A stretch of 64,000 bases of DNA. It comes from Actinomycetota bacterium (lineage in GTDB: Bacteria > Actinomycetota > UBA4738 > HRBIN12). Positions 27,162-40,164 of the stretch are shown here, piece by piece. The translations under genes were made by a program, and so were the position numbers. The notes beneath the pieces are model-generated. The model had not been told where the DNA came from, did no database searches, and worked only from the letters and a program-made list of their open reading frames with translations. How positions within the stretch are numbered: position 1 is the first letter of the stretch; each line of letters opens with the position of its first letter. The stretch lies in NCBI GenBank assembly GCA_036390995.1, contig DASWAT010000083.1:3052-67051 (forward strand). Reading direction: 5' to 3'.

Positions 27162-30100
27162 ATGAGCCAGGTCAGGTGCGAGCGCTGCGGCGAGCCGCTC
27201 CAGGCGACCGCCCGGTTCTGCCCGAACTGCGGGTTCCCCACCACGGCGCCCCCACCGGAGGAGCGCAAGGTCGTGACCGTCGTGTTCACCGACCTGGTGG
27301 GCTCCACGCAGCTGTCCGCCAGGATCGATCCCGAGGCCTACCGGGAGGTCATCGCCGGCTACTACCAGGCCGTGACCGAGGAGCTCGAGTCGCTCCGGGG
27401 ACGCGCGTACAACTTCGCCGGCGACGCCGTGGTCGGCGTGTTCGGATTGCCGCAGGCCCACGACGACGACGCCCTGCGGGCGATCAGAGCCGGCCTGGCC
27501 GTGGTGGACCGTGTGGAGCGTCTCGGGCGGTCGTTCGGCCTGCCGACGCCTCTCCGCTGCCGGGTCGGCGTGAACACGGGCCCCGTGGCCGTCGGGTCCG
27601 AAGGGGCCGAGCAGGGACTGCTCTTCGGCGCCGCCGTGAACGCGGCGGCGCGCCTGCAACAGGCCGCCGAGCCGGGCACGGTCCTCGTGGGCCAGACCAC
27701 CCGGATGATCACCGAGGACCGGGTGGAGTTCGGACCGGATCTGCTCATCGAGGCGAAGGGCTTCGAGGATCCGCTTCCCGCGTGGCCGGTGGTTGCCCTG
27801 GCCCCCCGCTCGTCGCGCCGGACCATCCCGTTCGTCGACCGCCGACGCGAGCTGCGGCTGCTCCACGACACGTTCGAGCGCGCCGTGGAGGCACGGCGCG
27901 CGCACATGGTGACGTTGTTCGGCGAGCCCGGGATCGGGAAGAGCCGGGTGATCGACGAGTTCGTGGCCACGCTCCCCGAGGGGACGAAGGTGCTCACCGG
28001 CAGGGCGAGCCCGTTCGAGGAGGACGTCACGTTCTCGCCGGTCGGGCAGATGCTGCTCCAGGAGCTCGGGGAGCCCCCCGACGCGCCGAAGCAGGAGCTG
28101 CAGCTACGCCTCGAGGAGGTCGTCGTCTCGTGCTGCTCGCCCGACCGCTCGCAGGAGATCGTCGCGCGGCTGGGTCACGCGCTCGGGCTGGTCGACGAAC
28201 CGCGGGAGGAGCGCCGGTCCCGCGTGGCCGAGATCCGGGCGGGCCTGCTCGCGTTCCTCGAGGGCCTCGCGGCTCAAGGGCCGGTGGTCCTCGTGTTCGA
28301 GGACCTTCACCTGGCCGAGCCGCAGCTCCTCGACCTGGTGGAGGAGACCGTCCGCGAGGCTCGGGGCGTGCCGCTGTTCGTCCTGTGCGCCGCCCGGTAC
28401 GACCTCCTGGACGAGCGCCCGGCGTGGGGCGGTGGCCTCGGCGACTCGCTGAACCTGTACCTGGAGTCGATGTCGCTGGAGGATGCCACCGAGCTGGCGC
28501 TGGAGGCGGGGGAGGGTCTGGATCCGCGCACGGCCGAGCGGATCGCCCGGCACGCCGGGGGGAACCCGTTCTTCATCGTAGAGACCACGGGGATGTTCCT
28601 GCACCTGGGGGCGGAGCTGCCCTCCGACACGGGACCGATGCCGCAGGCGCTGTTGCCTCCGACCGTGCAGGCCGTGATCGCGTCTCGGATCGACCACCTG
28701 CCCGCCGACGCGCGCGACCTCATCCGCAAGGCGTCGGTCTTCGCGCGCTCGAGGTTCGACCTCTCCGAGCTCCAGCTGATCGCCGATCCGAACGAGAAGG
28801 TGCTCGCCCTGTTGGAGGACGAGGAGCTCCTCGTCCCCGATCCCGAGCGCCCGGGCGTGTGGCGGTTCCGGCACGGGATGGTCCGCGACGTGGCCTACGA
28901 GAGCCTGCCCAAGCGCGAGCGCCAGCGGCTGCACCTGCTGGTCGCGGATCGGCTCTCCCGGGACCCCTCGACGGCGGCCCGCTACCCACGATCGATCGCT
29001 TACCACCTGGAGCAGGCCGCCCGCGCCTCGCTGGACCTGAACCCCTCGGACCGGTCGCTGGCCGATCGAGCCGTGGAGGCGCTCGCGCACGCAGGCCATC
29101 TGGCGCTCGACGGGTCGGAGCCGCGACCCGCCGCCGACCTGTTCGAGCGGGCCATCGCCCTGGCGGGGCCCGGGTCCGGATGGGGAGGCCGGGAGGCCGA
29201 CGTGCTGGCCCACCTCGGCGAGGCCCGCTACTGGCTGGGCGAGTTCGAGGCCGCCGTCCCGCCGCTCGGCCGCGCGCTCGAGCTGGCCCCGGGTGACCTG
29301 CCGATCCAGGCGCACGCGACCCGGTTCCTCGGCGACATCGAGCTGTCGATCCGCGGCAACCGCGAGCGGGCCGAGGAGCTGTTCGACCGCGCGCTGGCCT
29401 CGGCGCGCGAGCTCGGCGATCCCCGCACCCTGGCCCGGACGCTGCTGACCGCGGCCTGGGCGCCGTACTGGCGGGACGACCTGGACGCGACCAGAGCGAT
29501 GTTCGAGGAGGCGCTGCGAGTGGCCCGGGCCACCCGCGGCGGGGATCCGTGGGCGGAGGCCCGGGCCCTGAGCTCGCTGGCCGCCGTGGTCTCGGAGGTC
29601 GGCGACGAGGACGAGGCATTCGCGCTCGCATCGGAGTCGCTGGCCATCGCGGAGGCCAAGGGGGATCGGTTCGCGATGGCGGTGGCGCGCCAGGAGGTGG
29701 GGGACGCGCTCCGGCACATGTGGAGGCTGGCCGACGCCCTGCCGCACCTCGACAGGTCGGTCGACGCGTTCCGCGAGCTCGGCGCCCGGTGGGAGCTCGC
29801 CAGCGCGCTCACGTCGCGGGGCGTCCTGCACCGGCACGCCGGGCGGATCGACCAGGCGGTCCGGGACCTCCGGGAGGCCTACCGCCTCTGCCGCGAGCTG
29901 AGGGAGCGGAGCATCCTCACGTGGACGGCGCGCTCGCTGGCCGTGGCCCTGGTGATGGCGGAGGACCTGCCCGGGGCCAGAGCCTTGATCGAGGAGACGG
30001 CCACCGTGGCCCAGCCCGAGGGTCCGGGTGCCAGCGAGTGGCTCACCGACGCCGAGATCGTCCTCCTGCTCGCGGGGGGCGACGAGGCGGGGGCCCGGGA

Positions 30101-30299
30101 CCGGGCGATGGAGCTGCTCGCGATCGAGCGCGACCGCGGCCGGGAGAAGGAGATCGCGGGCAGGGTGTGGCTCGTCGGCCGGGTGTTCGGCCCCGACCTG
30201 GTCGGTGGCCAGGATGAGCTCGAACGCGCCCACAAGGTGCTGGCGTCGCTGCACGCCGAGGAGATCCTGCGCGAGCCCGACCTGATCCGGAGGAGGTGA
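27162..30299 (+). CDS. Zinc-ribbon / class III adenylate-guanylate cyclase / STAND (NB-ARC-like AAA) NTPase / TPR multidomain protein
   Basis: N-terminal CERCGEPLQATARFCPNCG double zinc ribbon. Cyclase domain (VVTVVFTDLVGST...FAGDAVVGVFG...GVNTGPV), Walker A GEPGIGKS, Walker B VLVFEDLHLAE, and a long Ala/Leu/Arg-rich TPR-like C-terminus. 1045 aa. Confidence 0.8.
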   Translation: MSQVRCERCGEPLQATARFCPNCGFPTTAPPPEERKVVTVVFTDLVGSTQLSARIDPEAYREVIAGYYQAVTEELESLRGRAYNFAGDAVVGVFGLPQAHDDDALRAIRAGLAVVDRVERLGRSFGLPTPLRCRVGVNTGPVAVGSEGAEQGLLFGAAVNAAARLQQAAEPGTVLVGQTTRMITEDRVEFGPDLLIEAKGFEDPLPAWPVVALAPRSSRRTIPFVDRRRELRLLHDTFERAVEARRAHMVTLFGEPGIGKSRVIDEFVATLPEGTKVLTGRASPFEEDVTFSPVGQMLLQELGEPPDAPKQELQLRLEEVVVSCCSPDRSQEIVARLGHALGLVDEPREERRSRVAEIRAGLLAFLEGLAAQGPVVLVFEDLHLAEPQLLDLVEETVREARGVPLFVLCAARYDLLDERPAWGGGLGDSLNLYLESMSLEDATELALEAGEGLDPRTAERIARHAGGNPFFIVETTGMFLHLGAELPSDTGPMPQALLPPTVQAVIASRIDHLPADARDLIRKASVFARSRFDLSELQLIADPNEKVLALLEDEELLVPDPERPGVWRFRHGMVRDVAYESLPKRERQRLHLLVADRLSRDPSTAARYPRSIAYHLEQAARASLDLNPSDRSLADRAVEALAHAGHLALDGSEPRPAADLFERAIALAGPGSGWGGREADVLAHLGEARYWLGEFEAAVPPLGRALELAPGDLPIQAHATRFLGDIELSIRGNRERAEELFDRALASARELGDPRTLARTLLTAAWAPYWRDDLDATRAMFEEALRVARATRGGDPWAEARALSSLAAVVSEVGDEDEAFALASESLAIAEAKGDRFAMAVARQEVGDALRHMWRLADALPHLDRSVDAFRELGARWELASALTSRGVLHRHAGRIDQAVRDLREAYRLCRELRERSILTWTARSLAVALVMAEDLPGARALIEETATVAQPEGPGASEWLTDAEIVLLLAGGDEAGARDRAMELLAIERDRGREKEIAGRVWLVGRVFGPDLVGGQDELERAHKVLASLHAEEILREPDLIRRR

Positions 30300-31586: not shown

Positions 31587-32750
31587 ATGGCCCACAACCG
31601 AATCCGAACCGGCGGCGTCGTGCGCCGAGCCGCCGTCGTCCTCGCTGTGTTCGCGCTGCTGTCCGGGCTGACGGCCGGAGCCGGCGCAGATCCGAAGCAG
31701 GACCTGCAACAGGCGAAGTCGCGCCTGGCCCAGATCCGAACGGAGATCACGCAGCAGCAGGCCGTGTTGAGCAGGCTGTCCGCACAGGCCGCCGCGCTCG
31801 CGCAGCGGATCGACGAGGCGCAGGGCAAGTACGAGTACATCACGTCGCAGCTCCAGGACACGCGGGCCAAGCTCCTGGACGCCACCCAGCGGTTCCAGGC
31901 GGTCGAGGCCCAGTTGAACTCGCGCGCCCGCGAAACCTACATGCAGGGGCCGGCCAGCCCGCTCGAGTTCCTCCTCGGGGCCACGTCGTTCTCGGACCTG
32001 TCCGACCGGATGGAGTACGTGGGCGCGCTCACGCAGACCGACGCCGACCTGGCGAACCAGGTCCAGAACCTGCGGAACGAGCTCACCGCGCAGCAGCGCG
32101 ACCAGCAGCGCCTCCAGGCCAGGCAGGCGGAGCTGCTGAAGGGCCTGCAGGCCGACCAGGCGCAGCTCGACGCCCAGTTCTCACAGCAGAAGCAGGTCTA
32201 CGACGACATCAAGGCCAAGGAGGCCGAGGCCCAGCAGCTCGTCAGCAAGGCCACCCGCGAGTACCGGCAGTGGCTGAAGTCGCTCAGCGCGCCGGTGAAC
32301 ATCGCCGGCAACCCGCTCCACGTCTGCCCGGTGGACCAGCCGCGCGCCGTGTACGACGGGTTCGGGGCTCCGCGGTACGCCGGCGGGTACCATCCACACG
32401 CCGGCAACGACATCGTCGCGCCGGGGGGAACGCCGATCCGCGCGCCCTTCGACGGCACCGCGCGCGCTTCGTACAACGGCCTCGGCGGCAACGCGGTGTA
32501 CGTCTACGGCTCGGCCGGGTACGTCTACAACGCCCACCTCATGCAGCCCGGCTCCTCGGGCTCGGTCTCGGCCGGCCAGATCATCGGCTACGTCGGCAAC
32601 ACCGGCGACGCGCAGGGGGGCGTGACCCACGACCACTTCGAGTGGCATCCGAACGCGATCCCATCGAACTGGATAGCCAGCCCGTACGGATATTCGGTGA
32701 TCGGCACGGCCATCAACCCGTATCCCTACCTCGAGCAAGTGTGCCGGTAG
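31587..32750 (+). CDS. Secreted M23 family metallopeptidase with N-terminal coiled-coil
   Basis: Signal peptide (AAVVLAVFALLSGLTAGAGA), about 200 aa of Gln/Ala-rich coiled coil, then a LytM/M23 domain (HAGNDIVAPGGTPIRAPFDGT...GNTGDAQGGVTHDHFE). Confidence 0.75.
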   Translation: MAHNRIRTGGVVRRAAVVLAVFALLSGLTAGAGADPKQDLQQAKSRLAQIRTEITQQQAVLSRLSAQAAALAQRIDEAQGKYEYITSQLQDTRAKLLDATQRFQAVEAQLNSRARETYMQGPASPLEFLLGATSFSDLSDRMEYVGALTQTDADLANQVQNLRNELTAQQRDQQRLQARQAELLKGLQADQAQLDAQFSQQKQVYDDIKAKEAEAQQLVSKATREYRQWLKSLSAPVNIAGNPLHVCPVDQPRAVYDGFGAPRYAGGYHPHAGNDIVAPGGTPIRAPFDGTARASYNGLGGNAVYVYGSAGYVYNAHLMQPGSSGSVSAGQIIGYVGNTGDAQGGVTHDHFEWHPNAIPSNWIASPYGYSVIGTAINPYPYLEQVCR

Positions 32751-32792: not shown

Positions 32793-33683
32793 ATGGCCCA
32801 CGCGCACAGCGCGGCGGCTGAGCATCGCGGACGGCTCCTGGCCGTCTTGGTCGTCACGGCATCGGTCCTCGTCGTCGAGGCGGTGGGCGGGCTCGTGTCC
32901 GGGAGCCTCGCGCTCCTCGCGGACGCCGGCCATATGCTGACCGACGTGGCGGGCATCGGCCTGGCCCTGCTAGCGGTGTTCTTCGCGCAGCGTCCGGCCG
33001 ATCCTGATCGTACCTTCGGCTGGTTCCGGCTGGAGATCCTGGCCGCCGCGGCGAACGCCGTGGTCCTGCTCGGCGTCTCCGCGCTGGTCCTGTGGGAGGC
33101 GTGGCGGCGGTTCGTCGATCCGCCCGAGGTGGCCAGCGGGCTCATGCTGGCCGTCGCCGTGGTGGGCCTTGCCGCGAACGGGCTCTCGATGTGGCTGCTC
33201 CGCGACGGGCAGGTCCGAAGCCTGAACATGCGCGGCGCGTACCTCGAGGTGGTGAGCGACCTCCTCGGTTCGGTCGCGGTGATCGTGGCCGCCGTCGTGA
33301 TCGCCGCGACGGGGATCCGGCGCGCCGACCCGGTAGCCTCGGCGGTCATCGGCCTGTTCATCCTGCCGCGGACGTGGCGGCTGCTCCGCGAGGCGGTGGA
33401 CGTGCTGCTCGAGGCCACGCCGCGTGGCATCGATCTGGAGGAGGTCCGCCGGCACATCGTCGGGACGGGCGGGGTGGAGGACGTGCACGACCTCCACGCC
33501 TGGACCATCACGAGCGGGATGAACGTGGTCTCCGCCCACGTCGTGCTCGGCGAAGGCGCCGATCCGTCTCTCGTGCTCGACGAGCTGTGCGCGTGCCTCA
33601 TGGACGACTTCGACATCGAGCACAGCACGTTCCAGCTCGAGACCAGGGATCGACGCCGGATCGAGGACGCGAGCCATCCCTGA
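32793..33683 (+). CDS. Cation diffusion facilitator family transporter (CzcD/ZitB-like)
   Basis: LADAGHMLTDV signature, HxxxD metal-site motifs, and a C-terminal cytoplasmic domain with HDLHAWTI. 296 aa. Confidence 0.85.
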   Translation: MAHAHSAAAEHRGRLLAVLVVTASVLVVEAVGGLVSGSLALLADAGHMLTDVAGIGLALLAVFFAQRPADPDRTFGWFRLEILAAAANAVVLLGVSALVLWEAWRRFVDPPEVASGLMLAVAVVGLAANGLSMWLLRDGQVRSLNMRGAYLEVVSDLLGSVAVIVAAVVIAATGIRRADPVASAVIGLFILPRTWRLLREAVDVLLEATPRGIDLEEVRRHIVGTGGVEDVHDLHAWTITSGMNVVSAHVVLGEGADPSLVLDELCACLMDDFDIEHSTFQLETRDRRRIEDASHP

Positions 33684-33742
33684 GGCTCGGCCGGTACTTG
33701 CAGCTCCGTTCCGGCCGGCGGGTCCGCGGTACCCTGGGCCCC

Positions 33743-34312
33743 GTGACGGGCACACGGGGGCGGTTCCTTCCCACCGTTGGGATCGCGGCGGGCGGCGTCG
33801 TGCTGGGGCACCTGCTGGCGTACACGATCACGTTCCCCGTGGGAGCCGTGCGGTACCGGCACCTCGCAGAGGCCGGCCACAGTTCCTTCCACCGTGTGGT
33901 CATCGCCGCGGCGCTCCTCGGCGGGCTGGCCGCCGCCACCCTGTGCGTTCGGAGCCTCCGGACGAAGGAGCGGGCGTCCACGCCGACGGTCCGGCTGCTC
34001 GCCGGGCTCCAGGTCGTGGGGTTCCTGCTCCTCGAGGTGATCGAGCGCCACGGCCGCCTGGGTCTCGCGTTCTCCGATCCGGGCGTGCGGGTCGGGCTCG
34101 TGCTCCAGGTGCTGGTCGCCGTGGCCCTGGCCCTCGTGCTCCGAGGGTTCGTTCGAGTGGTCCAGGCGGTGGCCTCGTTGCTCCAACGCCCTCCACGCTC
34201 CCGGCCGGCGCCCATCCTGCCGCCGGCGGTCGCGTTCGTCCGCCCACGCGCCGGGGCCCACCTCCCGTTCGCCCGGCGGCGGGCGCCGCCGCTCCCGTTC
34301 CCGTCGTCCTGA
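33743..34312 (+). CDS. Hypothetical membrane protein (4 TM)
   Basis: Candidate GTG start at 33743 with a weak RBS. Hydrophobic helices (VGIAAGGVVLGHLLAYTITFPVG, VVIAAALLGGLAAATLCV, LAGLQVVGFLLLEVI, VGLVLQVLVAVALALVL). Only the 3' part of ORF 33092-34312 is used. Confidence 0.35.
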   Translation: MTGTRGRFLPTVGIAAGGVVLGHLLAYTITFPVGAVRYRHLAEAGHSSFHRVVIAAALLGGLAAATLCVRSLRTKERASTPTVRLLAGLQVVGFLLLEVIERHGRLGLAFSDPGVRVGLVLQVLVAVALALVLRGFVRVVQAVASLLQRPPRSRPAPILPPAVAFVRPRAGAHLPFARRRAPPLPFPSS

Positions 34313-34366
34313 TGTGGAGGCGGCCGGGCATCGCGGCCGCCGGAACGGAAGCGAGGTGAGTGGCTG

Positions 34367-34831
34367 ATGAGACCTTCCACGCGCTGGATCGCGGCCCTGG
34401 TCGGCATCGCCGTGGTGGTGGCGCTGTTCGTCGTCCTTCGCCCGGACGGGTCGTCCTCGGGCTCGAGCGGGTCGGACGTGTCTCCCACCGGGGCGGCGTC
34501 CCCCGCGACGACGGGGACCGGGGGGCCGTCGCCGACCGGGGCGCCCTCGGCCACGCCCACCGGCGGCGACGTCGCCGAGCTCGACGTCACGGTCCGGAAC
34601 GGCGACGTCCAGGGGCCGGGCGAGTTCGACGTCACGCAGGGCCAGGAGGTCCGGATCGTCGTGGACGCCGACGTCACCGACGAGGTTCACGTCCACGGCT
34701 ACGACCTCCACGACGACGTCTCGCCCGGCGAGCCGGCCGAGATCGAGTTCACGGCGAACGCGCCCGGCGTGTTCGAGGTCGAGCTCGAGAGCCAGGGCAA
34801 GCTGCTGTTCGAGCTGAAGGTGTCGCCGTGA
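34367..34831 (+). CDS. Secreted cupredoxin-like/EfeO-N-like beta-sandwich protein with Pro/Thr/Gly-rich linker
   Basis: TM/signal segment (IAALVGIAVVVALFVVL), a low-complexity PTGAASPATTGTGGPSPTGAPSATPTGG linker, then DVTVRNGDVQGPGEFDVTQGQEVRIVVDADVTDEVHVHGYDL...GVFEVELE. Confidence 0.5.
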   Translation: MRPSTRWIAALVGIAVVVALFVVLRPDGSSSGSSGSDVSPTGAASPATTGTGGPSPTGAPSATPTGGDVAELDVTVRNGDVQGPGEFDVTQGQEVRIVVDADVTDEVHVHGYDLHDDVSPGEPAEIEFTANAPGVFEVELESQGKLLFELKVSP

Positions 34832-36141
34832 TCACCGTCCTGGCCCACGGTTTCGGCGGACGGGTGGACCTGCCGGTGCCGAGGTCGTTGTTCGTGTTCG
34901 GAGCGGCGACCGCGTTGGTCGTGTCGTTCGTCGCGCTCTCCGTGCTGTGGCGCGAACCGCGCCTGGAGGACGGGGGCCGCACGCGCACCGTTCACGGTCT
35001 CCGCCGGTTGCTCACGAGCCCGGTGGTGGAGTGGACGGTTCGGGCCGTCGCGCTCGCGGTGTTCGCGGTGGTCACCGTCGCGGCCTTCGTGCGCCTGGAG
35101 GCCACCGCGACGATCGCGCCGGTGTTCGTGTTCGACTGGTTCTGGGTGGGACTGGCCTTCGCCCACGCGCTGTTCGGCAACCTGTGGGCCACGCTGTCCC
35201 CGTTCGACACCCTTGGGCGGCTGCTCCTGCTCGACGAGCCCGATCACCGTCCGCCGTTCGCGTACCCCAAGGCGTGGGGTCGGTGGCCGGCCGCGATCCT
35301 CCTGTTCGGGTTCGTGTGGCTGGAGCTGGCGAACCCGTTCGCGAACGTCCCGGGGGCGCTCGGCTACCTGATGGTGGGCTACACGTTCCTGAACGTCGGC
35401 GCGATGTACCTGTTCGGCAGGAAGGCGTGGGTGGAGAACGGCGAGGCGTTCGCCGTGTACTTCGGGCTGCTGGCTCGCCTGTCCCCGTTCGCCCGTGACG
35501 GGGAGGGACGGGTGGTGCTCCGCGCTCCGCTTGCGGGGCTCACCTCGCTGGAGCCGAGGCCTGGGCTCCTCGCGGTGATCCTCGTCGCCCTCGGCTCCAC
35601 CACCTTCGACGGCCTGTCGCGGACCACGCTGTGGGTCTCCCGGGCCTCGTCGTTCACGGGGTGGCAGCGCGTGACCCTCGACACCGTGGCGATGCTGGGC
35701 GTGATCCTGCTCATGGCGGGTGCGTACGCCCTTGCCATGGTCGCCGCGGGACGGATCGTCGACGGCCACTGGCATCCGGTGGCGACGCGGTTCGCTCACA
35801 GCCTGGTGCCGATCGTGTTCGCGTACCTGGTGGCGCACTACTTCTCGTTCCTGCTGATCGAGGGGCAGGTGGGGCTGTCCCGGATCTCCGATCCGCTCGG
35901 CCGCGGCTGGGACCTGTTCGGGACCGCGGGATGGACGGTGAACCTCGCGCTGCTGTCGGCCACGCTGATCTGGTACGTGCAGGTGGCCGCGATCGTGCTC
36001 GGCCACGTCGGCGGGGTGGTGCTGGCCCACGATCGAGCCATCTCGTGGTTCGACGCGCGGCACGCCCTTCGGACCCAGTACGCACTGCTCGCCGTGATGG
36101 TGCTGTTCACGTCGGCCGGCCTGCTGATCCTGTCGGGGTGA
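34828..36141 (+). CDS. Polytopic integral membrane protein (about 10 TM, His-rich helices; possibly CopD-like)
   Basis: GTG 34828 overlaps the previous stop (GTGA). Multiple TM helices and conserved His (HGFGG, HWHP, AHYFSF, GHVGGVVLAHD). The family was not recognised confidently. Confidence 0.5.
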   Translation: MITVLAHGFGGRVDLPVPRSLFVFGAATALVVSFVALSVLWREPRLEDGGRTRTVHGLRRLLTSPVVEWTVRAVALAVFAVVTVAAFVRLEATATIAPVFVFDWFWVGLAFAHALFGNLWATLSPFDTLGRLLLLDEPDHRPPFAYPKAWGRWPAAILLFGFVWLELANPFANVPGALGYLMVGYTFLNVGAMYLFGRKAWVENGEAFAVYFGLLARLSPFARDGEGRVVLRAPLAGLTSLEPRPGLLAVILVALGSTTFDGLSRTTLWVSRASSFTGWQRVTLDTVAMLGVILLMAGAYALAMVAAGRIVDGHWHPVATRFAHSLVPIVFAYLVAHYFSFLLIEGQVGLSRISDPLGRGWDLFGTAGWTVNLALLSATLIWYVQVAAIVLGHVGGVVLAHDRAISWFDARHALRTQYALLAVMVLFTSAGLLILSG

Positions 36142-36407
36142 TGGAGATGATCGGAAGCGTTCGGCCCATCTTGGCGCACGGGTCGGGCATCGACGACTTG
36201 GTGATGATCGGGATCGCGACGTTCGGCTTCCTGCTCTACTCCGCCCTCAAGGCGGGACTGAGCGGGGCCGGAGAGGACCATGACCATCGGGAGCGGTGCG
36301 CATACTGCGGCGCGCGGAGGCCGGTGGGATCGCGGTGCCCCGGATGCGGCTTCCGGGTCCGACGAGGTCCGACCTCCACTCGGCGCTCGCTCGACGACGT
36401 GACATGA
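36141..36407 (+). CDS. Small membrane protein with C-terminal CxxC-x7-CxxC zinc ribbon
   Basis: ATG 36141 overlaps the upstream stop by 1 nt. One TM (LVMIGIATFGFLLYSAL) and then DHDHRERCAYCGARRPVGSRCPGCGFRV. Confidence 0.45.
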   Translation: MEMIGSVRPILAHGSGIDDLVMIGIATFGFLLYSALKAGLSGAGEDHDHRERCAYCGARRPVGSRCPGCGFRVRRGPTSTRRSLDDVT

Positions 36408-36443
36408 CAAGAGAGGAACTCCGGTCCGACAGGAGGTGATCCG

Positions 36444-36986
36444 GTGAGCGCGACCCCGCACGGGCACCCAGCCTTTCCGAACGACCGATCCACACCGTCC
36501 TCGCCATGTTCCCTCGCCGCGGCCGCCATCCACTTCGCTGTGATGGGCGAGCACTTCGCTGAGTACTTCGCGTTCGGCCTGTTCTTCTCGGTCGTAGCCT
36601 GGCTGCAGGCGCTCTGGACGGTCGGGATGGTCGTCTCCCCCGGACGTCGTCTGCTCCTGGCAGGTCTCGTCGGCAACGCGCCCGTGGTGCTCCTGTGGCT
36701 CTTCTCTCGGACGACCGGGCTGCCGGTCGGTCCTGACCCGGGGGTGGCCGAGTCGGCGGCGTTCGTCGACGTGCTCTCCACGATGCTGGAGCTGGTGATC
36801 GTCGCTGGGTCGGCGGTCCTGCTCGCTCGTCCTCCCACGCGGAGCGCGGGTAGCCCGAGGGCGACCTTCGCCATCGTCAGCGTCGCCCTGGTCCTCGCGA
36901 TGCTGTCGACATGGGCGGTCGCGGTCGCCAACACCACGAACCACGTGGAGATGGCCTCCGGCAGGGGGATGGTGGGACGAAGATGA
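36444..36986 (+). CDS. Hypothetical 4-TM membrane protein
   Basis: GTG at 36444 preceded by aggaggtgatccg. Helices AAAIHFAVMGEHFAEYFAFGLFFSVVAWL, LLAGLVGNAPVVLLWLF, VDVLSTMLELVIVAGSAVLL and FAIVSVALVLAMLSTWAVAVA. Confidence 0.5.
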   Translation: MSATPHGHPAFPNDRSTPSSPCSLAAAAIHFAVMGEHFAEYFAFGLFFSVVAWLQALWTVGMVVSPGRRLLLAGLVGNAPVVLLWLFSRTTGLPVGPDPGVAESAAFVDVLSTMLELVIVAGSAVLLARPPTRSAGSPRATFAIVSVALVLAMLSTWAVAVANTTNHVEMASGRGMVGRR

Positions 36987-37153
36987 GAGCCGAAGAGGTG
37001 AGGTGGGTCGTGGTCGGTCGGATCCTGGCCGGCCCGGTGTTGCTGGTTGGCTCCGCGTGCACGCGCTCCGACACACTGGCGAAACGGCTCCTTCACCGTT
37101 CCTGAACAGCCTCCTCCTAGCCTGCGGGGGTGAGAGGAAAGGAGGCGGTAGGG

Positions 37154-37609
37154 ATGATGAGGCGACCGATCTTCATCGGGGTCACGGCGATGCTCGCCCT
37201 GGCCCTGACCGCCGGCCTCGCGTACGGCGCGGGCAGGCTGGTCGGAACGCAGACGAGGAGCGCGCAGGCGGTGCGCCAGCGGATCGCGACCATCAGCGTG
37301 GTTCCTGGAACCATCTCGAGCTACCGAGCTCAGGCTCGGCAGCAGGCGGCGTACCGAGCCACGGTCAGGTACCAGACGCGGCAGTGGATGCGCGAATGGA
37401 TGCAGGGGTGGATGGGGGACCACCGTTGGGGCTCGCGCTCAGGCTCGCGCCCGGGCCCGCAGGGCACCTCCTCGTACGGCGGCTTGGGCTCCGGTGGATA
37501 CGGCCATGGCCACCACGGGGACCACTCGTACGGCTCGGGTCAGCAGGGCTCCGGGTCCGGCGGGTACGGATACGGACACGGCTGGGATGACCACGGTCCC
37601 TGCTGGTGA
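37154..37609 (+). CDS. Secreted Met/Trp/His- and Gly-rich protein (possible metal-binding)
   Basis: ATG 37154 after aggaggcggtaggg. Signal peptide (IFIGVTAMLALALTAGLAYG), then QWMREWMQGWMGDHRW (Met-rich, Cu(I)-type spacing) and GGYGHGHHGDHSYGSGQQGSGSGGYGYGHGWDDHGPCW. Confidence 0.55.
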   Translation: MMRRPIFIGVTAMLALALTAGLAYGAGRLVGTQTRSAQAVRQRIATISVVPGTISSYRAQARQQAAYRATVRYQTRQWMREWMQGWMGDHRWGSRSGSRPGPQGTSSYGGLGSGGYGHGHHGDHSYGSGQQGSGSGGYGYGHGWDDHGPCW

Positions 37610-37629
37610 TCCGGCCTCGAAGACCGCCA

Positions 37630-37660
37630 GAAGGCCGCTCGCGTTGCGCGGGCGGCCTTC
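37630..37660 (+). terminator. GC-rich hairpin immediately after the Met/His-rich protein gene (putative intrinsic terminator, no U-tract)
   Basis: gaaggccgc-tcgcgttgcgcgg-gcggccttc, a perfect 9-bp stem starting 21 nt after the TGA at 37607-37609. Confidence 0.4.
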
Positions 37661-37802
37661 CGGCCTTCGCGTGAACATGCACCGGTGCCAACCTAGGGGC
37701 CGACCTGCAGATCCTCCGAAGGTCCTGAGGGCGCCCGGCCGTTCGCCCCTAAGGGCGATGTTGCCTCCCCTGCATCGTGAACGCATCCGACACGCGGAGG
37801 AT

Positions 37803-38504
37803 GTGGTGGGGACAGCGACCGTGCTGGTCGTGGACGACGAGCCGAAGATCCGGAACACGGTCCGCGTCTTCCTCGAGCAGGAGCGATACGCGGTCCTCGC
37901 CGCCGGCACGGGCAGCGAGGCCATCGAGGTGGCGAGCCGCCTGAAGCCGGATCTGGTCGTGCTGGATCTGATGCTGCCCGACCTCCCCGGCGAGGAGGTT
38001 GCCCGCTCGCTCCGAGCCGTTTCCGAGGTCCCCATCATCATGCTCACGGCGAAGGCCGAGGAGGCCGACCGGGTGGCGGGGTTGAAGTTGGGCGCCGACG
38101 ACTACGTCGTCAAGCCGTTCAGCCCGCTCGAGCTGGTGGCTCGGGTCGGAGCGGTGCTGCGACGAGCACGCGGAGGTGACGCGGACGGGGTCCTGTCCTT
38201 CGACGAGGGCCGGCTCGCGATCGACGGTGACGCCCGAGAGGTGACCCTCGACGGCAGCACCGTCCCTCTGACGAAGAGCGAGTTCGACCTGCTCCTGGCG
38301 TTGGCCTCGCAGCCGGGACGAGCGTTCTCCCGGTACGAGCTCGTGGCCCGGGTCCACGGATACGACTACGAGGGGTACGAGCGGACCATCGACGTCCACG
38401 TGAAGAACCTCCGGGCCAAGCTCCGGGACGATCCGAAGGAGCCCCGGTACGTCCGAACGATCCCCGGGGTCGGCTACAAGCTCGGGGTGAAGCCCGATGG
38501 GTAG
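37803..38504 (+). CDS. OmpR-family two-component response regulator
   Basis: GTG at 37803 after cggagg. VLVVDDEPKIRN...DLVVLDLMLPDLPGEE receiver domain and a winged-helix C-terminus (RTIPGVGYKL). Confidence 0.85.
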   Translation: MVGTATVLVVDDEPKIRNTVRVFLEQERYAVLAAGTGSEAIEVASRLKPDLVVLDLMLPDLPGEEVARSLRAVSEVPIIMLTAKAEEADRVAGLKLGADDYVVKPFSPLELVARVGAVLRRARGGDADGVLSFDEGRLAIDGDAREVTLDGSTVPLTKSEFDLLLALASQPGRAFSRYELVARVHGYDYEGYERTIDVHVKNLRAKLRDDPKEPRYVRTIPGVGYKLGVKPDG

Positions 38505-40164
38505 GGGGCGCGGGCTCTGGCACTCGTTCGCCTTCCGGCTCGGGGTGGCGTTCGCGGTGGTCGCCATCGCAGCATCGGCGCTGACCGCCGGGCTGGTGAG
38601 CGCCGCCTTCGGCTCACCCTTCGATCGCTACCTCGAGCAGCAGCGATCGGCGCAGGTCGGCCAGATCACGTCACTGGTCGAGCACGCCTACCGCGGGAAC
38701 GGCAGGTGGAGCAGCGAGGCGTTGTCCGCCGTGGTCCCCCTCCTCGGATCGGGCACACTGCGGCTGGAGGACCCGTACGGCAAGACCGTCTGGCAGTGGC
38801 CCTCCAGACCGTCGCCCAGCCCGACACCGACCGGCACGGCCGGCGAGGGCACGGGCCAAGGCTCGAGTGGCGGCGCCACCCCGACCCCGTCCGGCACGTC
38901 CACGTCTGGCGGTTCCGGTGGATCGGATCACGGGAGCTGGGACCACGGCGACGGCTGGGACAACGGCGACGGTGACTGGACGGGTGGCGGGGGTTGGAGT
39001 CGGAGCAGCTCGGGGGCCATGACGAGGTCCTTCCTGGCTGCCGGCGACGAGATCGACGTCGTGCTGGTGTCCGCATCGGGCTCGCGGTCGAGCACATCCG
39101 CCCTGGGTCCCGCCCAGCGCATCCCGATCGAGGTCGACGGACGGACGGTGGGGTACGCGGTGATCCGGCTCCGCAAGGCGAGTCAGCAACCGAGTGCGGT
39201 CGCGTTCAGGTCGGACCTGGTGAAGCGGCTACTGCTCGGCGGGATCCTGGCGGCGCTCCTCTCGCTCGGGCTCGGTCTGATGTTCGCGCTTCGTGCGACG
39301 GCGCCCGTCCGGCAGGTCCGAGGAGCCGCGCGTGCCCTCACGGCCGGCGACCGATCTGTGTCGCTCCAGACTGAGCGGTCGGACGAGTTCGGCGACGTGG
39401 GCCGCGCGCTGCGGACCATGGCCGACTCCGTGGAGGAGGAGGAGCGCCTTCGCCAGGGCTTCGCTGCACAGGTCGCGCACGAGCTCCGGACGCCACTCAC
39501 GATCCTGCAGTCGCAGGTGGAGGGGCTCCGCATCGGGGTGCTCGAGCCGACGCCCGAGGCCATCGTGTCGCTCCACGAAGAGGTTCTGCGGATCTCGCGG
39601 CTGGTTGCCGACCTCCAGATCCTGGGCTCCGCCGATGCCGCCGGCTTCTCCCTCGAGCGGGCCACGACCGACCTCCGGGAGGCCGTCGACGAGACGGTCC
39701 GGGAGTTCGCCGGGCTGTTCGAGGGCTCGGAGGTGCGCCTGGAGAGCCGCCTGGAACCGGTGATCGCCTGGGTCGACCGCGTTCGGGTGGGCCAGGTGCT
39801 CTCGAACCTGCTCTCGAACGCCCTGAAGTTCACGCCGCCGGGTGGCCTGGTTCGGGTGGAGCTCCGGCGCGACGAGCCGTGGGCCGTGCTGCGGGTCTCG
39901 GACTCAGGTCCCGGCATCCCGGCTGACGAGCTGCCGCACGTGTTCGACCGGTTCTTCCGGGGCCGCGGGTCGCGCTCGAGCGGCTCGGGGATCGGGCTCA
40001 CCGTCGTGAGCGAGCTGGTCCGAGCCCACGGCGGCGAGGTCGAGGTCTCGAGCGACCCGGGGAGCGGTGCCACGTTCACGGTTCGACTCCCCCTGCAACC
40101 GACACCCGCTCGAAGGCGGATCCGCGCGGGATCCGAACCGGCCGTCTCTGCAGCCTCGTCCTGA
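38497..40164 (+). CDS. Two-component sensor histidine kinase with low-complexity D/H/W/G-rich extracytoplasmic loop
   Basis: Overlaps the RR stop by 8 nt. TM1, then about 190 aa of Ser/Thr/Gly-rich periplasmic loop containing GSDHGSWDHGDGWDNGDGDWTGGGGW, TM2, HAMP-like region, H-box AHELRTPLT, and the N/G1/G2 boxes (SNALKFT, DSGPGI, GSGIGL). Confidence 0.85.
   Translation: MGRGRGLWHSFAFRLGVAFAVVAIAASALTAGLVSAAFGSPFDRYLEQQRSAQVGQITSLVEHAYRGNGRWSSEALSAVVPLLGSGTLRLEDPYGKTVWQWPSRPSPSPTPTGTAGEGTGQGSSGGATPTPSGTSTSGGSGGSDHGSWDHGDGWDNGDGDWTGGGGWSRSSSGAMTRSFLAAGDEIDVVLVSASGSRSSTSALGPAQRIPIEVDGRTVGYAVIRLRKASQQPSAVAFRSDLVKRLLLGGILAALLSLGLGLMFALRATAPVRQVRGAARALTAGDRSVSLQTERSDEFGDVGRALRTMADSVEEEERLRQGFAAQVAHELRTPLTILQSQVEGLRIGVLEPTPEAIVSLHEEVLRISRLVADLQILGSADAAGFSLERATTDLREAVDETVREFAGLFEGSEVRLESRLEPVIAWVDRVRVGQVLSNLLSNALKFTPPGGLVRVELRRDEPWAVLRVSDSGPGIPADELPHVFDRFFRGRGSRSSGSGIGLTVVSELVRAHGGEVEVSSDPGSGATFTVRLPLQPTPARRRIRAGSEPAVSAASS

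Follow-up and report, generated by a model that had tools for sequence, protein, structure and literature searches.

A gene region resembling a metal-homeostasis island in an actinobacterial contig is a mosaic of separate units around a conserved pair of genes for a cupredoxin-like and a ten-helix membrane protein

We analyzed positions 32793–40164 of a 64-kb stretch of DNA (hereafter the window; all coordinates are window positions) from an Actinomycetota bacterium (GenBank assembly GCA_036390995.1, contig DASWAT010000083.1, positions 3,052–67,051), a region that begins with a gene for a cation diffusion facilitator (CDF), continues with genes for a cupredoxin-like protein and several membrane proteins, and ends in a two-component system (TCS). 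The original prediction had described it as eleven same-strand genes forming one copper/zinc homeostasis island reminiscent of cop/cus loci. Frame analysis of G+C content at third codon positions (GC3) supported coding on the + strand throughout, and the predicted strand and coordinates were right, but we count nine well-supported genes and one doubtful 40-aa open reading frame (ORF), not eleven. The G+C content of the window (~71%) is flat, with no compositional break around the region, and therefore nothing in the base composition marks it as a foreign island. The features are as follows, with TM denoting transmembrane, RR the response regulator, and HK the histidine kinase.

g1, 32793–33683, + strand: predicted CDF exporter with an H-D / E-D transport site
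g2, 33743–34312, + strand: 4-TM membrane protein, with GC3 frame support
g3, 34367–34831, + strand: TM anchor, linker, and predicted Cys-less cupredoxin domain
g4, 34828–36141, + strand: 10-TM membrane protein of a large unclassified family
g5, 36138–36407, + strand: one TM helix and a C-terminal zinc ribbon
g6, 36444–36986, + strand: 4-TM membrane protein with a AAAIHFAVMGEHFAEY motif
g6b, 36983–37105, + strand: doubtful 40-aa ORF, lipoprotein-like (LLVGSAC)
conserved g7 promoter region (putative), 37073–37153, + strand: direct repeat, −10-like hexamer, and Shine-Dalgarno sequence
g7, 37154–37609, + strand: small anchored or secreted protein
GC-rich hairpin just past the g7 stop, 37618–37669, + strand: terminator-like, with no clear U tract
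g8 (RR), 37803–38504, + strand: predicted OmpR-family response regulator
g9 (HK), 38497–40164, + strand: predicted sensor histidine kinase (HAMP-HisKA-HATPase)

Starts and stops overlap at g3/g4 (GTGA), g4/g5 (GTGA/ATG), g6/g6b (ATGA), and RR/HK (8 nt), bearing out the translational coupling that had been suggested for several of these genes. The start of g6b overlaps the stop of g6, and we regard this ORF as doubtful because its 3′ end lies inside the conserved g7 promoter region and it is not kept in the related locus L091. When we scanned the ten products (g1–g9, including g6b) against Pfam and NCBIfam, no family was found for g2, g4, g6, g6b, or g7.

To see which of these genes travel together, we collected 82 loci encoding relatives of g4, from genomes and metagenome assemblies, and sought each window protein in them. 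Only g3 and g4 stayed together, with g3 directly upstream of g4 in 78 of the 82 loci and most of the exceptions at contig ends; the pair stands alone in most genomes. A g5 homologue lay directly downstream of g4 in ~29 loci and a g2 homologue directly upstream of g3 in eight, and g2 is an optional upstream companion of the g3–g4 pair. The CDF gene, g6, and g7 were beside the pair in none of the 82, g6 had no counterpart anywhere in these loci, and RR- or HK-like genes occurred at scattered positions only, with low identity. The locus of the closest relative (g4 88% identical) contains g2-g3-g4-g5 followed by a gene for a 326-aa protein, and then a divergent Cation_efflux-family gene with an ArsR-type (HTH_5) gene; it shares with the window the downstream genes for a 3-hydroxyacyl-CoA dehydrogenase (3HCDH), VKOR, and a glycosyltransferase, and it contains no TCS. 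In seven relatives the 3HCDH gene directly follows g4 or g5, so that, compared with these, the window has an insertion at 36444–40164 (g6 to HK). The single island of the original prediction did not survive this comparison: the region comprises at least four or five separate units, arranged as a mosaic, which would act at the cell envelope, and not one TCS-controlled island. We propose the units g1, g2–g5, g6, and g7-RR-HK, most of which appear tied to metals by their contexts, and for annotation the case is a reminder that genes which look plausibly like one "metal island" may belong to distinct units in a mosaic.

The g7-RR-HK unit illustrates this separateness. Among 5.8 billion proteins there were ten g7 homologues, and every one that could be placed adjoined an RR (83–86% identical to that of the window) and an HK (69–76% identical), in the order g7-RR-HK or RR-HK-g7. 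Common to the family are an anchor at the N terminus, the motif R-x-Q-M-R-x-W-M-x-D-W-M, a tail rich in Gly, Tyr, His, Ser, and Asp, and a Cys-Trp that is invariant at the C terminus, and the MREWMQGWM and GYGHGHHGDH segments to which attention had been drawn are both present in g7. The g7 proteins are just ~51–55% identical, whereas the ~85 nucleotides upstream of the gene are near-identical in the window, L091 (120–200), and L092 (1–85). This upstream sequence contains a direct repeat, CTCCTTCACC-GTTCCTGAAC (37088–37107, 10 + 10 bp), in the −35 position, a −10-like hexamer TAGCCT (37118–37123), and a ribosome-binding site; the two-repeat pattern has one match in the 64-kb window, compared with 0.03 expected. 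Behind the g7 stop is a 14-bp G+C-rich hairpin (−41.7 kcal/mol, z = −3.6) whose stem, GAAGGCCGC...GCGGCCTTC, is conserved in L091 and L092. The upstream region and the hairpin look like an OmpR-type activator site and a terminator, respectively, both putative. Because g7 has its own conserved promoter region and a hairpin behind it, we infer that it is a unit of its own, a monocistronic target that the adjacent RR would activate through the conserved direct repeat, with RR-HK forming a separate operon.

The same repeat did not extend to the rest of the region. In the window motif search no RR-type direct repeat was found before the CDF gene or before g2–g5, contrary to what a TCS controlling the whole island would imply. 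A search with the half-site of the g7 promoter turned up one perfect copy within the coding part of g4 and additional copies within genes at other loci; we judged these to be chance occurrences and not RR sites. No sequence motif that we found links the g7-RR-HK system to g1–g6, and control of other genes by this system is not supported.

As had been predicted, g8 and g9 carry the domains of an OmpR-type regulator and its kinase, and their sequences identify them as an OmpR-family TCS. The RR matches Response_reg (8.8e-30) and Trans_reg_C (6.1e-26), and the HK has two TM helices and an extracytoplasmic loop of ~200 aa, followed by HAMP, HisKA, and HATPase domains above gathering thresholds. 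Among NCBIfam models the best match of the RR is MtrA (230 bits, cut-off 300), with the heavy-metal model TIGR01387 at 157.9 bits (cut-off 279.2), and the HK scores 210.6 bits against a BaeS-like model (cut-off 500) and 189.8 bits against the heavy-metal model TIGR01386 (cut-off 292.55). With both heavy-metal cut-offs missed, we rejected membership in the heavy-metal TCS group (CusRS/CopRS/CzcRS). The system resembles CusRS and CopRS in pairing an OmpR-type RR with a HAMP-HisKA kinase that has a periplasmic loop, in lying near metal genes, and in hitting TIGR01386/TIGR01387; it differs from them in that those sub-cut-off scores lie below the MtrA and BaeS scores, in a low-complexity Gly/Asp/Trp/His loop, and in its obligate small partner, g7. 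Alignment with three orthologues revealed a conserved GGWDHGDNWG segment within the low-complexity sequence of the sensor loop, which is compatible with metal sensing. In one related locus (L089, 1212–3437) RR-HK-g7 is preceded by genes for a 190-aa protein without a family and a COX1 (PF00115) homologue, a neighbor that makes a link of the sensor module to a haem-copper oxidase possible. With its unusually well conserved promoter region, g7-RR-HK makes a compact and tractable candidate for a new three-component signaling unit.

These results bear directly on the view that the region is one copper/zinc island resembling cop/cus, whose genes would act jointly in detoxification under the terminal TCS. 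The genes do lie on the same strand throughout, with several of them coupled, and a real CDF is among them; His/Asp/Gly-rich segments occur both in g7 and in the kinase sensor loop; the g7–TCS locus L089/L090 also has an ArsR-type gene and a CDF with 71% identity to g1; and relatives of g6 lie beside CDF genes, with an ArsR-sized ORF by the CDF in L100. However, these genes are not kept together as a set in relatives, RR and HK fall under the heavy-metal cut-offs and match MtrA and BaeS with higher scores, g7 is the only gene before which we found the conserved RR-type repeat, and the hairpin sits between g7 and the RR gene. The product families also argue against it: in the Pfam and NCBIfam scans none of the ten products matched CopC, CopD, YcnI (DUF1775), PCuAC, or Peptidase_M75/EfeO, the families that had been named as worth searching for, and P-type ATPase, RND, and multicopper-oxidase families were found neither among the ten products nor among the flanking ORFs that we read, with neither CopA nor CusCBA among the products. 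We therefore consider a single island quite improbable. Most of what the original prediction observed holds good, and its interpretation holds in part: what endures is a metal flavor, with a real CDF, a cupredoxin fold, and homologues of g4 and g6 in metal settings elsewhere, and not the likeness to a cop/cus locus run by its TCS.

The g3–g4 pair is the conserved core of the region, and g4 belongs to a very large family (6170 word-index matches, and 4363 representatives at 50% identity) that is spread over Actinomycetota, Proteobacteria, Nitrospinota, and haloarchaea. Its AlphaFold2 (AF2) model has ten long helices (pLDDT 84, pTM 0.86), in agreement with the ten TM helices originally described, although the accompanying label "His-rich" does not suit a protein in which only 11 of 437 residues are His, of which four are near-invariant. 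Neither Pfam nor NCBIfam had a hit for g4, and the PDB offered no real fold or sequence match; the fusion partners of long homologues (just BNR/sortilin-like and TPR domains) were uninformative. At the extracytoplasmic N terminus is the motif A-H-G-x-G-G-R-x-D-L-P-V-P, and in many homologues a Sec signal peptide ending in Ala-x-Ala directly precedes H-G-x-G-G-R-x-D-L-P-V-P, which implies that the motif faces outward and that in those homologues the mature chain would begin with His. To assess conservation we compared 135 diverse representatives together with actinobacterial, proteobacterial, and haloarchaeal members. Near-invariant in all groups were H337-Y338, P356, H393, H401, Q417, and M424, usually along with E166, whereas H7, D261, and D355 were kept in bacteria only and not in archaeal members. 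H337, H393, H401, M424, Q417, and E166 are intramembrane.

Two identities that might have been expected for g4 were rejected. For CopD and CopC (as identities of g4 and g3, respectively), there was no Pfam hit at E ≤ 0.1 (PF05425, PF04234), and hhalign gave probabilities of 0.1% for YebZ and 0.2% for YobA; for the FTR1/EfeU proteins (ILT superfamily), there was no PF03239 hit, a probability of 0.1% for EfeU (E. coli O157), and no RExxE. These hhalign comparisons used single-sequence templates, and with them E. coli YebZ, YobA, EfeU, and EfeO all stayed at ≤0.2%.

Its partner g3 had been described as a cupredoxin-like secreted protein, and our model confirms the fold, with the qualification that the protein is anchored by a TM helix. 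In the AF2 model, built with 59 homologues, a TM helix (residues 6–23) and a disordered Ser/Thr/Pro/Gly linker lead to a beta-sandwich (69–153, pLDDT 97–98) that is predicted to be a cupredoxin domain. The nearest structures in Foldseek were the CuA domains of nitrous-oxide reductase (NosZ) and ba3 oxidase subunit II (E ~2e-7), a profile search of PDB sequences agreed weakly with these CuA-type neighbors, and relatives by fold or sequence also included CupA, FtrB, EfeO, and CyoA. Against Pfam Cupredoxin_1 (PF13473) g3 scored 18.9 bits, under the cut-off of 27, and some homologues carry a precomputed hit; hhalign against EfeO, with its single-sequence template, gave a probability of 0.1%. Among 77 homologues the conserved residues were D-E-x-H108-x-H110-G-Y-D and P-G-V-F-E137-x-E139-L-E. 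With no Cys in the protein and with H108, H110, E137, and E139 as the conserved set, we rejected a type-1 or CuA copper center. Because alternate residues of a beta strand point the same way, these His and Glu side chains probably form a His2/Glu2–3 patch on one face of the sheet. A precedent for metal binding by a Cys-less cupredoxin is FtrB, which binds Cu2+ through Asp and His and oxidizes Fe2+ (PMC11966278).

Two further proteins accompany the pair less regularly. g2 has four TM helices and conserved His residues (GHLLAY, HL..GH), and its start is uncertain (33698 TTG or 33743 GTG). g5, picked out originally as a tiny protein with a TM helix and a zinc ribbon, indeed has a single TM helix, located between an L-A-H-G-x-G-x-D-D-L motif near the N terminus and CxxC-x9-CxxC near the C terminus; the Cys pairs and an LAH(Q/G)GG(W/I)D(E/D)L motif recur in ~20 distinct homologues, and the Pfam match, to DZR, was weak (E = 0.054). 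The N-terminal motifs of g4 (34828–34870) and g5 (36138–36200), LAHGxGG.xDL and LAH(G/Q)GGxD(D/E)L, are nearly the same and precede the first TM helix in both proteins, and this common motif may be a docking or metal-binding element. Because it combines a g4-like N-terminal motif with a cytoplasmic zinc ribbon, g5 is probably an accessory or regulatory subunit.

The genomic surroundings of g4 relatives elsewhere point in part to copper. On the M. dioxanotrophicus plasmid the order is sigC, a gene for a 353-aa protein, a g3-like gene, a g4-like gene, and a zf-HC2 gene, followed by the C, A, and B genes of a copper membrane monooxygenase (CuMMO); on the M. chubuense NBB4 plasmid the pair again follows sigC and lies between the CuMMO and a soluble di-iron monooxygenase cluster (plasmid loci L083, 5496–13569, and L086, 972–10347, from mycobacteria that degrade alkanes or dioxane). 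The zf-HC2 protein behind the g4-like gene of M. dioxanotrophicus is anti-sigma-like, and the 353-aa protein shows homology with a portion of an HMA-domain protein encoded in the island of M. gallinarum (L114, 16914–17885). SigC is described as countering copper starvation in M. tuberculosis (PMC7924339), and a review of NBB4 mentions the SigC-like gene and speculates on regulation by the availability of cofactor metals, without discussing the two genes behind it (PMC8784404). In Rhodococcus WAY2 a CuMMO subunit C gene lies ≤8 kb from the g4-like gene. The M. gallinarum plasmid pJCM6399 (L114, 5193–20001) combines a multicopper oxidase, a g4-like gene, an L,D-transpeptidase (Big_10+YkuD), a g6-like gene, a P-type ATPase, ArsR, a CDF with ArsR, HMA proteins, and a second ATPase. 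A g4-like gene is divergent from a PCuAC gene in Sulfitobacter and lies near a TCS and a galactose-oxidase-like gene in Pseudonocardia. The contexts in Variovorax, Neorhizobium, and Rhodococcus ZPP show nothing related to metals.

Other surroundings point to iron. On five haloarchaeal plasmids (Haladaptatus, Haloarcula, Hfx. gibbonsii, Salarchaeum, and Halorussus) the g4-like gene adjoins genes annotated "iron transporter", which in the three loci that we scanned encode PF10634 (P19/FetP family) with DUF7350, and on a sixth, that of Hfx. mediterranei, an unannotated 356-aa gene occupies the position of the P19-like gene of Hfx. gibbonsii. These loci often also contain a gene for a twin-arginine translocation (Tat) protein (DyP-related DUF7405 in one that was scanned) and a heavy-metal P-type ATPase, and among the neighboring genes in the six loci examined none was annotated as an FTR1 permease. 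In front of the haloarchaeal g4-like genes lies a gene for another kind of small protein, which has a C2H2 zinc finger and a TM helix. The megaplasmid clusters lie at L119 (5301–10778), L120 (4163–9788), L095, L125, L126, and L127, and the cluster goes unmentioned in the paper on the copper genome of Haloferax. In a clade of uncultured Actinomycetota (L001/L002, 2131–6481 and 8597–9040) g3–g4 lies among genes for a P-type ATPase–haemerythrin fusion, a nitrobindin-like protein (THAP4 haem-binding), MOSC, a free haemerythrin, and a PAS kinase, a setting flavored by iron, haem, nitric oxide, or O2.

Bringing these observations together, the explanation that we favor, which we hold with about even confidence, is that the region is a mosaic in which g3–g4 forms a partner-assisted metal module and g7-RR-HK is self-contained. 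g3 would bind a transition metal outside the cell, on the conserved His-x-His / Glu-x-Glu face of its sheet, and would pass the metal, or electrons from it, to g4, in which the outward N-terminal His motif and His337, His393, His401, Met424, Gln417, and Glu166 would form a path through or within the membrane. g5 would join as an accessory or regulatory subunit with a cytoplasmic zinc ribbon. On the outer side of the membrane, g3–g4 would by analogy handle a transition metal, either copper or iron, and would work like EfeU-EfeO, FtrC-FtrB/FtrA, and FetM-FetP, built on an unrelated membrane protein. We read g4 as a partner-assisted permease because the types of its partners (a Cys-less cupredoxin in bacteria, a P19-like protein in haloarchaea) match those of FTR1-type systems; the pair resembles these systems in combining a permease-like protein with a cupredoxin- or P19-type partner, and its likeness is thus one of apparent working and not of membership in the FTR1 family. 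As to the metal, the sigC/CuMMO linkage, multicopper oxidase, PCuAC, and His/Met chemistry point to copper, and P19, the DyP-related protein, the carboxylate-rich site of g3, and the haemerythrin and nitrobindin neighbors in uncultured Actinomycetota point to iron.

The comparison with known systems delimits this analogy. In EfeUOB, FtrABCD, FetMP, and cFtr1-P19, as here, a polytopic protein stands beside a cupredoxin-type (the EfeO Cup domain, FtrB) or P19-type (FtrA, FetP) protein, sometimes with a Tat DyP peroxidase (EfeB); in haloarchaea the g4-like gene lies beside PF10634 P19-like genes, with a DyP-related Tat protein in a locus scanned. Unlike the FTR1 permeases, however, g4 has ten TM helices and not seven, and intramembrane His, Met, and Gln in place of Glu, with no REXXE; and unlike EfeO, g3 is TM-anchored and has no M75 domain. 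The copper acquisition proteins CopC-CopD, YcnJ, YcnI, and PCuAC are alike in that a metal-binding beta-sandwich outside the cytoplasm is combined with a polytopic membrane protein, and g4 homologues are linked to sigC, CuMMO, and PCuAC. CopC and YcnI start with His after cleavage, as many g4 homologues would after removal of the signal peptide, but in g4 of the window the His motif is not N-terminal, and Pfam gave no CopC, CopD, YcnI, or PCuAC hits. CupA of Streptococcus pneumoniae is a membrane-anchored cupredoxin chaperone that binds Cu(I) via Cys and Met and serves the P-type ATPase CopA; g3, in contrast, lacks Cys and is partnered with g4 and not with an ATPase.

Several points weigh against the explanation that we favor. 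g4 of the window has no signal peptide, and six residues precede the His of its motif, which is accordingly not the first residue; g4 has neither REXXE nor a Met-rich motif, and the comparisons with EfeU and CopD described above gave no profile similarity. The copper and iron contexts conflict, leaving both metals as candidates. Across 34 clades of g4 no metal family was enriched among the immediate neighbors (ORF calls filtered by GC1 > GC2), the commonest being an M23 peptidase (5 of 34), and the metal contexts come mainly from plasmids, where metal islands are common, with no background control for the comparison. Our reading of the g3–g7 families is drawn from sequence, models, and context, and the three intramembrane His and one Met of g4 would suit haem ligation equally well and would also fit a catalytic metal site.

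This last ambiguity underlies the main competing explanation, a redox complex in which g3 would be a degenerate cupredoxin resembling an oxidase subunit II (as in CyoA) and g4 a haem/copper membrane subunit through which electrons would pass between a metal or substrate outside the cytoplasm and either the quinone pool or the cytoplasm itself. The nearest relatives of g3, and its best structural and profile matches, are CyoA and the CuA domains of NosZ and of subunit II of the ba3 oxidase, and the layout of g3, a single TM helix ahead of the cupredoxin domain, is the same; three invariant intramembrane His and one Met are typical haem ligands; and the neighbors include in haloarchaea a Tat protein whose C terminus weakly matches the DyP type (DUF7405) and a high-potential iron-sulfur protein, and in uncultured Actinomycetota the haemerythrin and nitrobindin genes. 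However, H393 and H401 lie on one helix just eight residues apart, g3 lacks the CuA ligands of haem-copper oxidase and NosZ (two Cys, a Met, and a second His) as well as those of a type-1 copper site, and g4 is unrelated to subunit I. We consider such a complex unlikely.

A different role for g4, as a membrane-embedded metallohydrolase or envelope-remodeling enzyme with g3 as its accessory, is suggested by the name "fenitrothion hydrolase", which is attached to four of its NCBI homologues (P0019, P0075, P0077, and P0104). The invariant His, Asp, and Glu residues could together serve as the ligands of a catalytic metal site, and genes for cell-wall enzymes recur nearby: L,D-transpeptidases, a lytic transglycosylase, and the M23 peptidase of the 5 clades, of which the window has a gene at 31587–32750 and which is a frequent syntenic neighbor of g4 relatives. 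Yet no NCBIfam model hits g4, and in the literature on fenitrothion hydrolase/FedA we traced no biochemical source for the name; experiments in Burkholderia have established Mpd, a distinct 292-aa protein, as the enzyme (PMC8571283), and the label on the g4 homologues is probably a propagated misannotation. Moreover, D261 and D355 are not kept in archaeal members, and the adjacency of the M23 gene may be inherited synteny. We regard this role as highly unlikely.

It might also be that unrelated units have come to lie together by chance, their metal flavor reflecting the abundance of metal islands on plasmids. The lack of conservation of the whole arrangement, the absence of any enriched neighbor family over the 34 clades, and the many contexts unrelated to metals (such as those of Variovorax, Neorhizobium, and Rhodococcus ZPP) would all fit this account. 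Chance would, however, hardly explain a P19 or P19-positioned neighbor in 6 of 6 haloarchaeal loci and the repeated linkage to sigC and CuMMO, nor the fact that in several related contigs of the lineage the CDF gene, a gene for a 326–340-aa lipoprotein, g6, the g7–TCS, and g2–g5 recur near one another in different orders. We think it improbable that juxtaposition alone accounts for the region, and the recurrence in shuffled orders gives some support to a loose functional neighborhood. The lipoprotein-like protein (320–340 aa, no Pfam family), which does not occur in the window, turns up repeatedly in relatives, adjoining the CDF/ArsR pair, behind g5, or adjacent to g7 (L021, 9753–10646; L089, 6531–7493; L098, 1283–2266; L100, 3212–4234; and the contig of P0003).

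If g3–g4 does handle copper or iron as a partner-assisted system based on an unclassified membrane protein, a large part of metal transport in prokaryotes has been left unannotated. The g4 family is abundant in soil Actinomycetota, and the haloarchaeal P19 clusters that we examined have no FTR1-annotated neighbor. A broader proposal, which we put forward tentatively and regard as doubtful, is that the g4 family constitutes an unrecognized, widespread class of metal permeases or transmembrane metallo-redox proteins that fills the role of FTR1/EfeU with g3- or P19-type partners, and that in some mycobacteria it would be part of a SigC copper-starvation response supplying the CuMMO. The position of g3–g4 after sigC, between copper and di-iron monooxygenase clusters, makes the pair a testable candidate for the supply or sensing of cofactor metal in alkane-oxidizing mycobacteria.

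We turn now to the remaining units. The CDF call for g1 was borne out, since the protein exceeds the curated thresholds of its family: Cation_efflux PF01545 (9.3e-45; 153.3 bits, cut-off 26.6), ZT_dimer PF16916 (1.7e-9; 38 bits, cut-off 26.7), and TIGR01297 (281.9 bits, cut-off 82.35), by which we identify it as a predicted CDF divalent-cation exporter. It resembles CzcD, ZitB, and ZnT in being a full-length CDF with a C-terminal dimerization domain and an HxxxD in TM2; in the alignment with human ZnT1, HMLTD of TM2 corresponds to HMLSD. It differs from them in TM5, where EVVSD stands in place of HVLGD, and in its score against the ZitB equivalog NF002923 (265.8 bits, cut-off 408), and we rejected its assignment as a ZitB/CzcD-type zinc CDF. 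The H-D/E-D variant is also found in the ~70%-identical orthologues in L089 (8227–9123) and L100 (1926–2819), whereas the CDFs of other loci (Rubrobacter, Haloarcula) keep an H-D/H-D site. Because of the ExxxD in TM5 and the sub-cut-off ZitB score, the metal specificity of g1 is uncertain and may be for a metal other than zinc.

g6 is a separate small membrane protein whose family is found beside metal ATPases and CDFs. Its homologues adjoin heavy-metal P-type ATPases in M. gallinarum and in M. chubuense NBB4, where a CsoR-like regulator is also present, and they adjoin ZIP, CDF, and DUF305 genes in Rubrobacter; homologues from metagenomes have a CDF gene nearby, which in L100 is itself adjoined by an ArsR-sized ORF. 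In M. gallinarum the run is P-type ATPase, g6-like gene, L,D-transpeptidase, and the location of the g6-like gene immediately downstream of the ATPase recalls, in position only, that of Rv0970 behind ctpV in M. tuberculosis.

A scan for promoter and terminator consensus sequences and Rfam families over 30–42 kb of the window returned nothing significant. The spacers between g1 and g2 (33684–33742) and between g2 and g3 (34313–34366) contain GC-rich inverted repeats, such as GGCGGCCG...CGGCCGCC, which might be terminators or attenuators dividing g1, g2, and g3–g5. Farther upstream, positions 27162–30299 encode a 1045-aa protein with an N-terminal zinc-ribbon-like CxxC...CxxC, the rest of which, judged by its sequence, resembles an adenylate/guanylate-cyclase domain with a P-loop ATPase and TPR-like repeats behind it.

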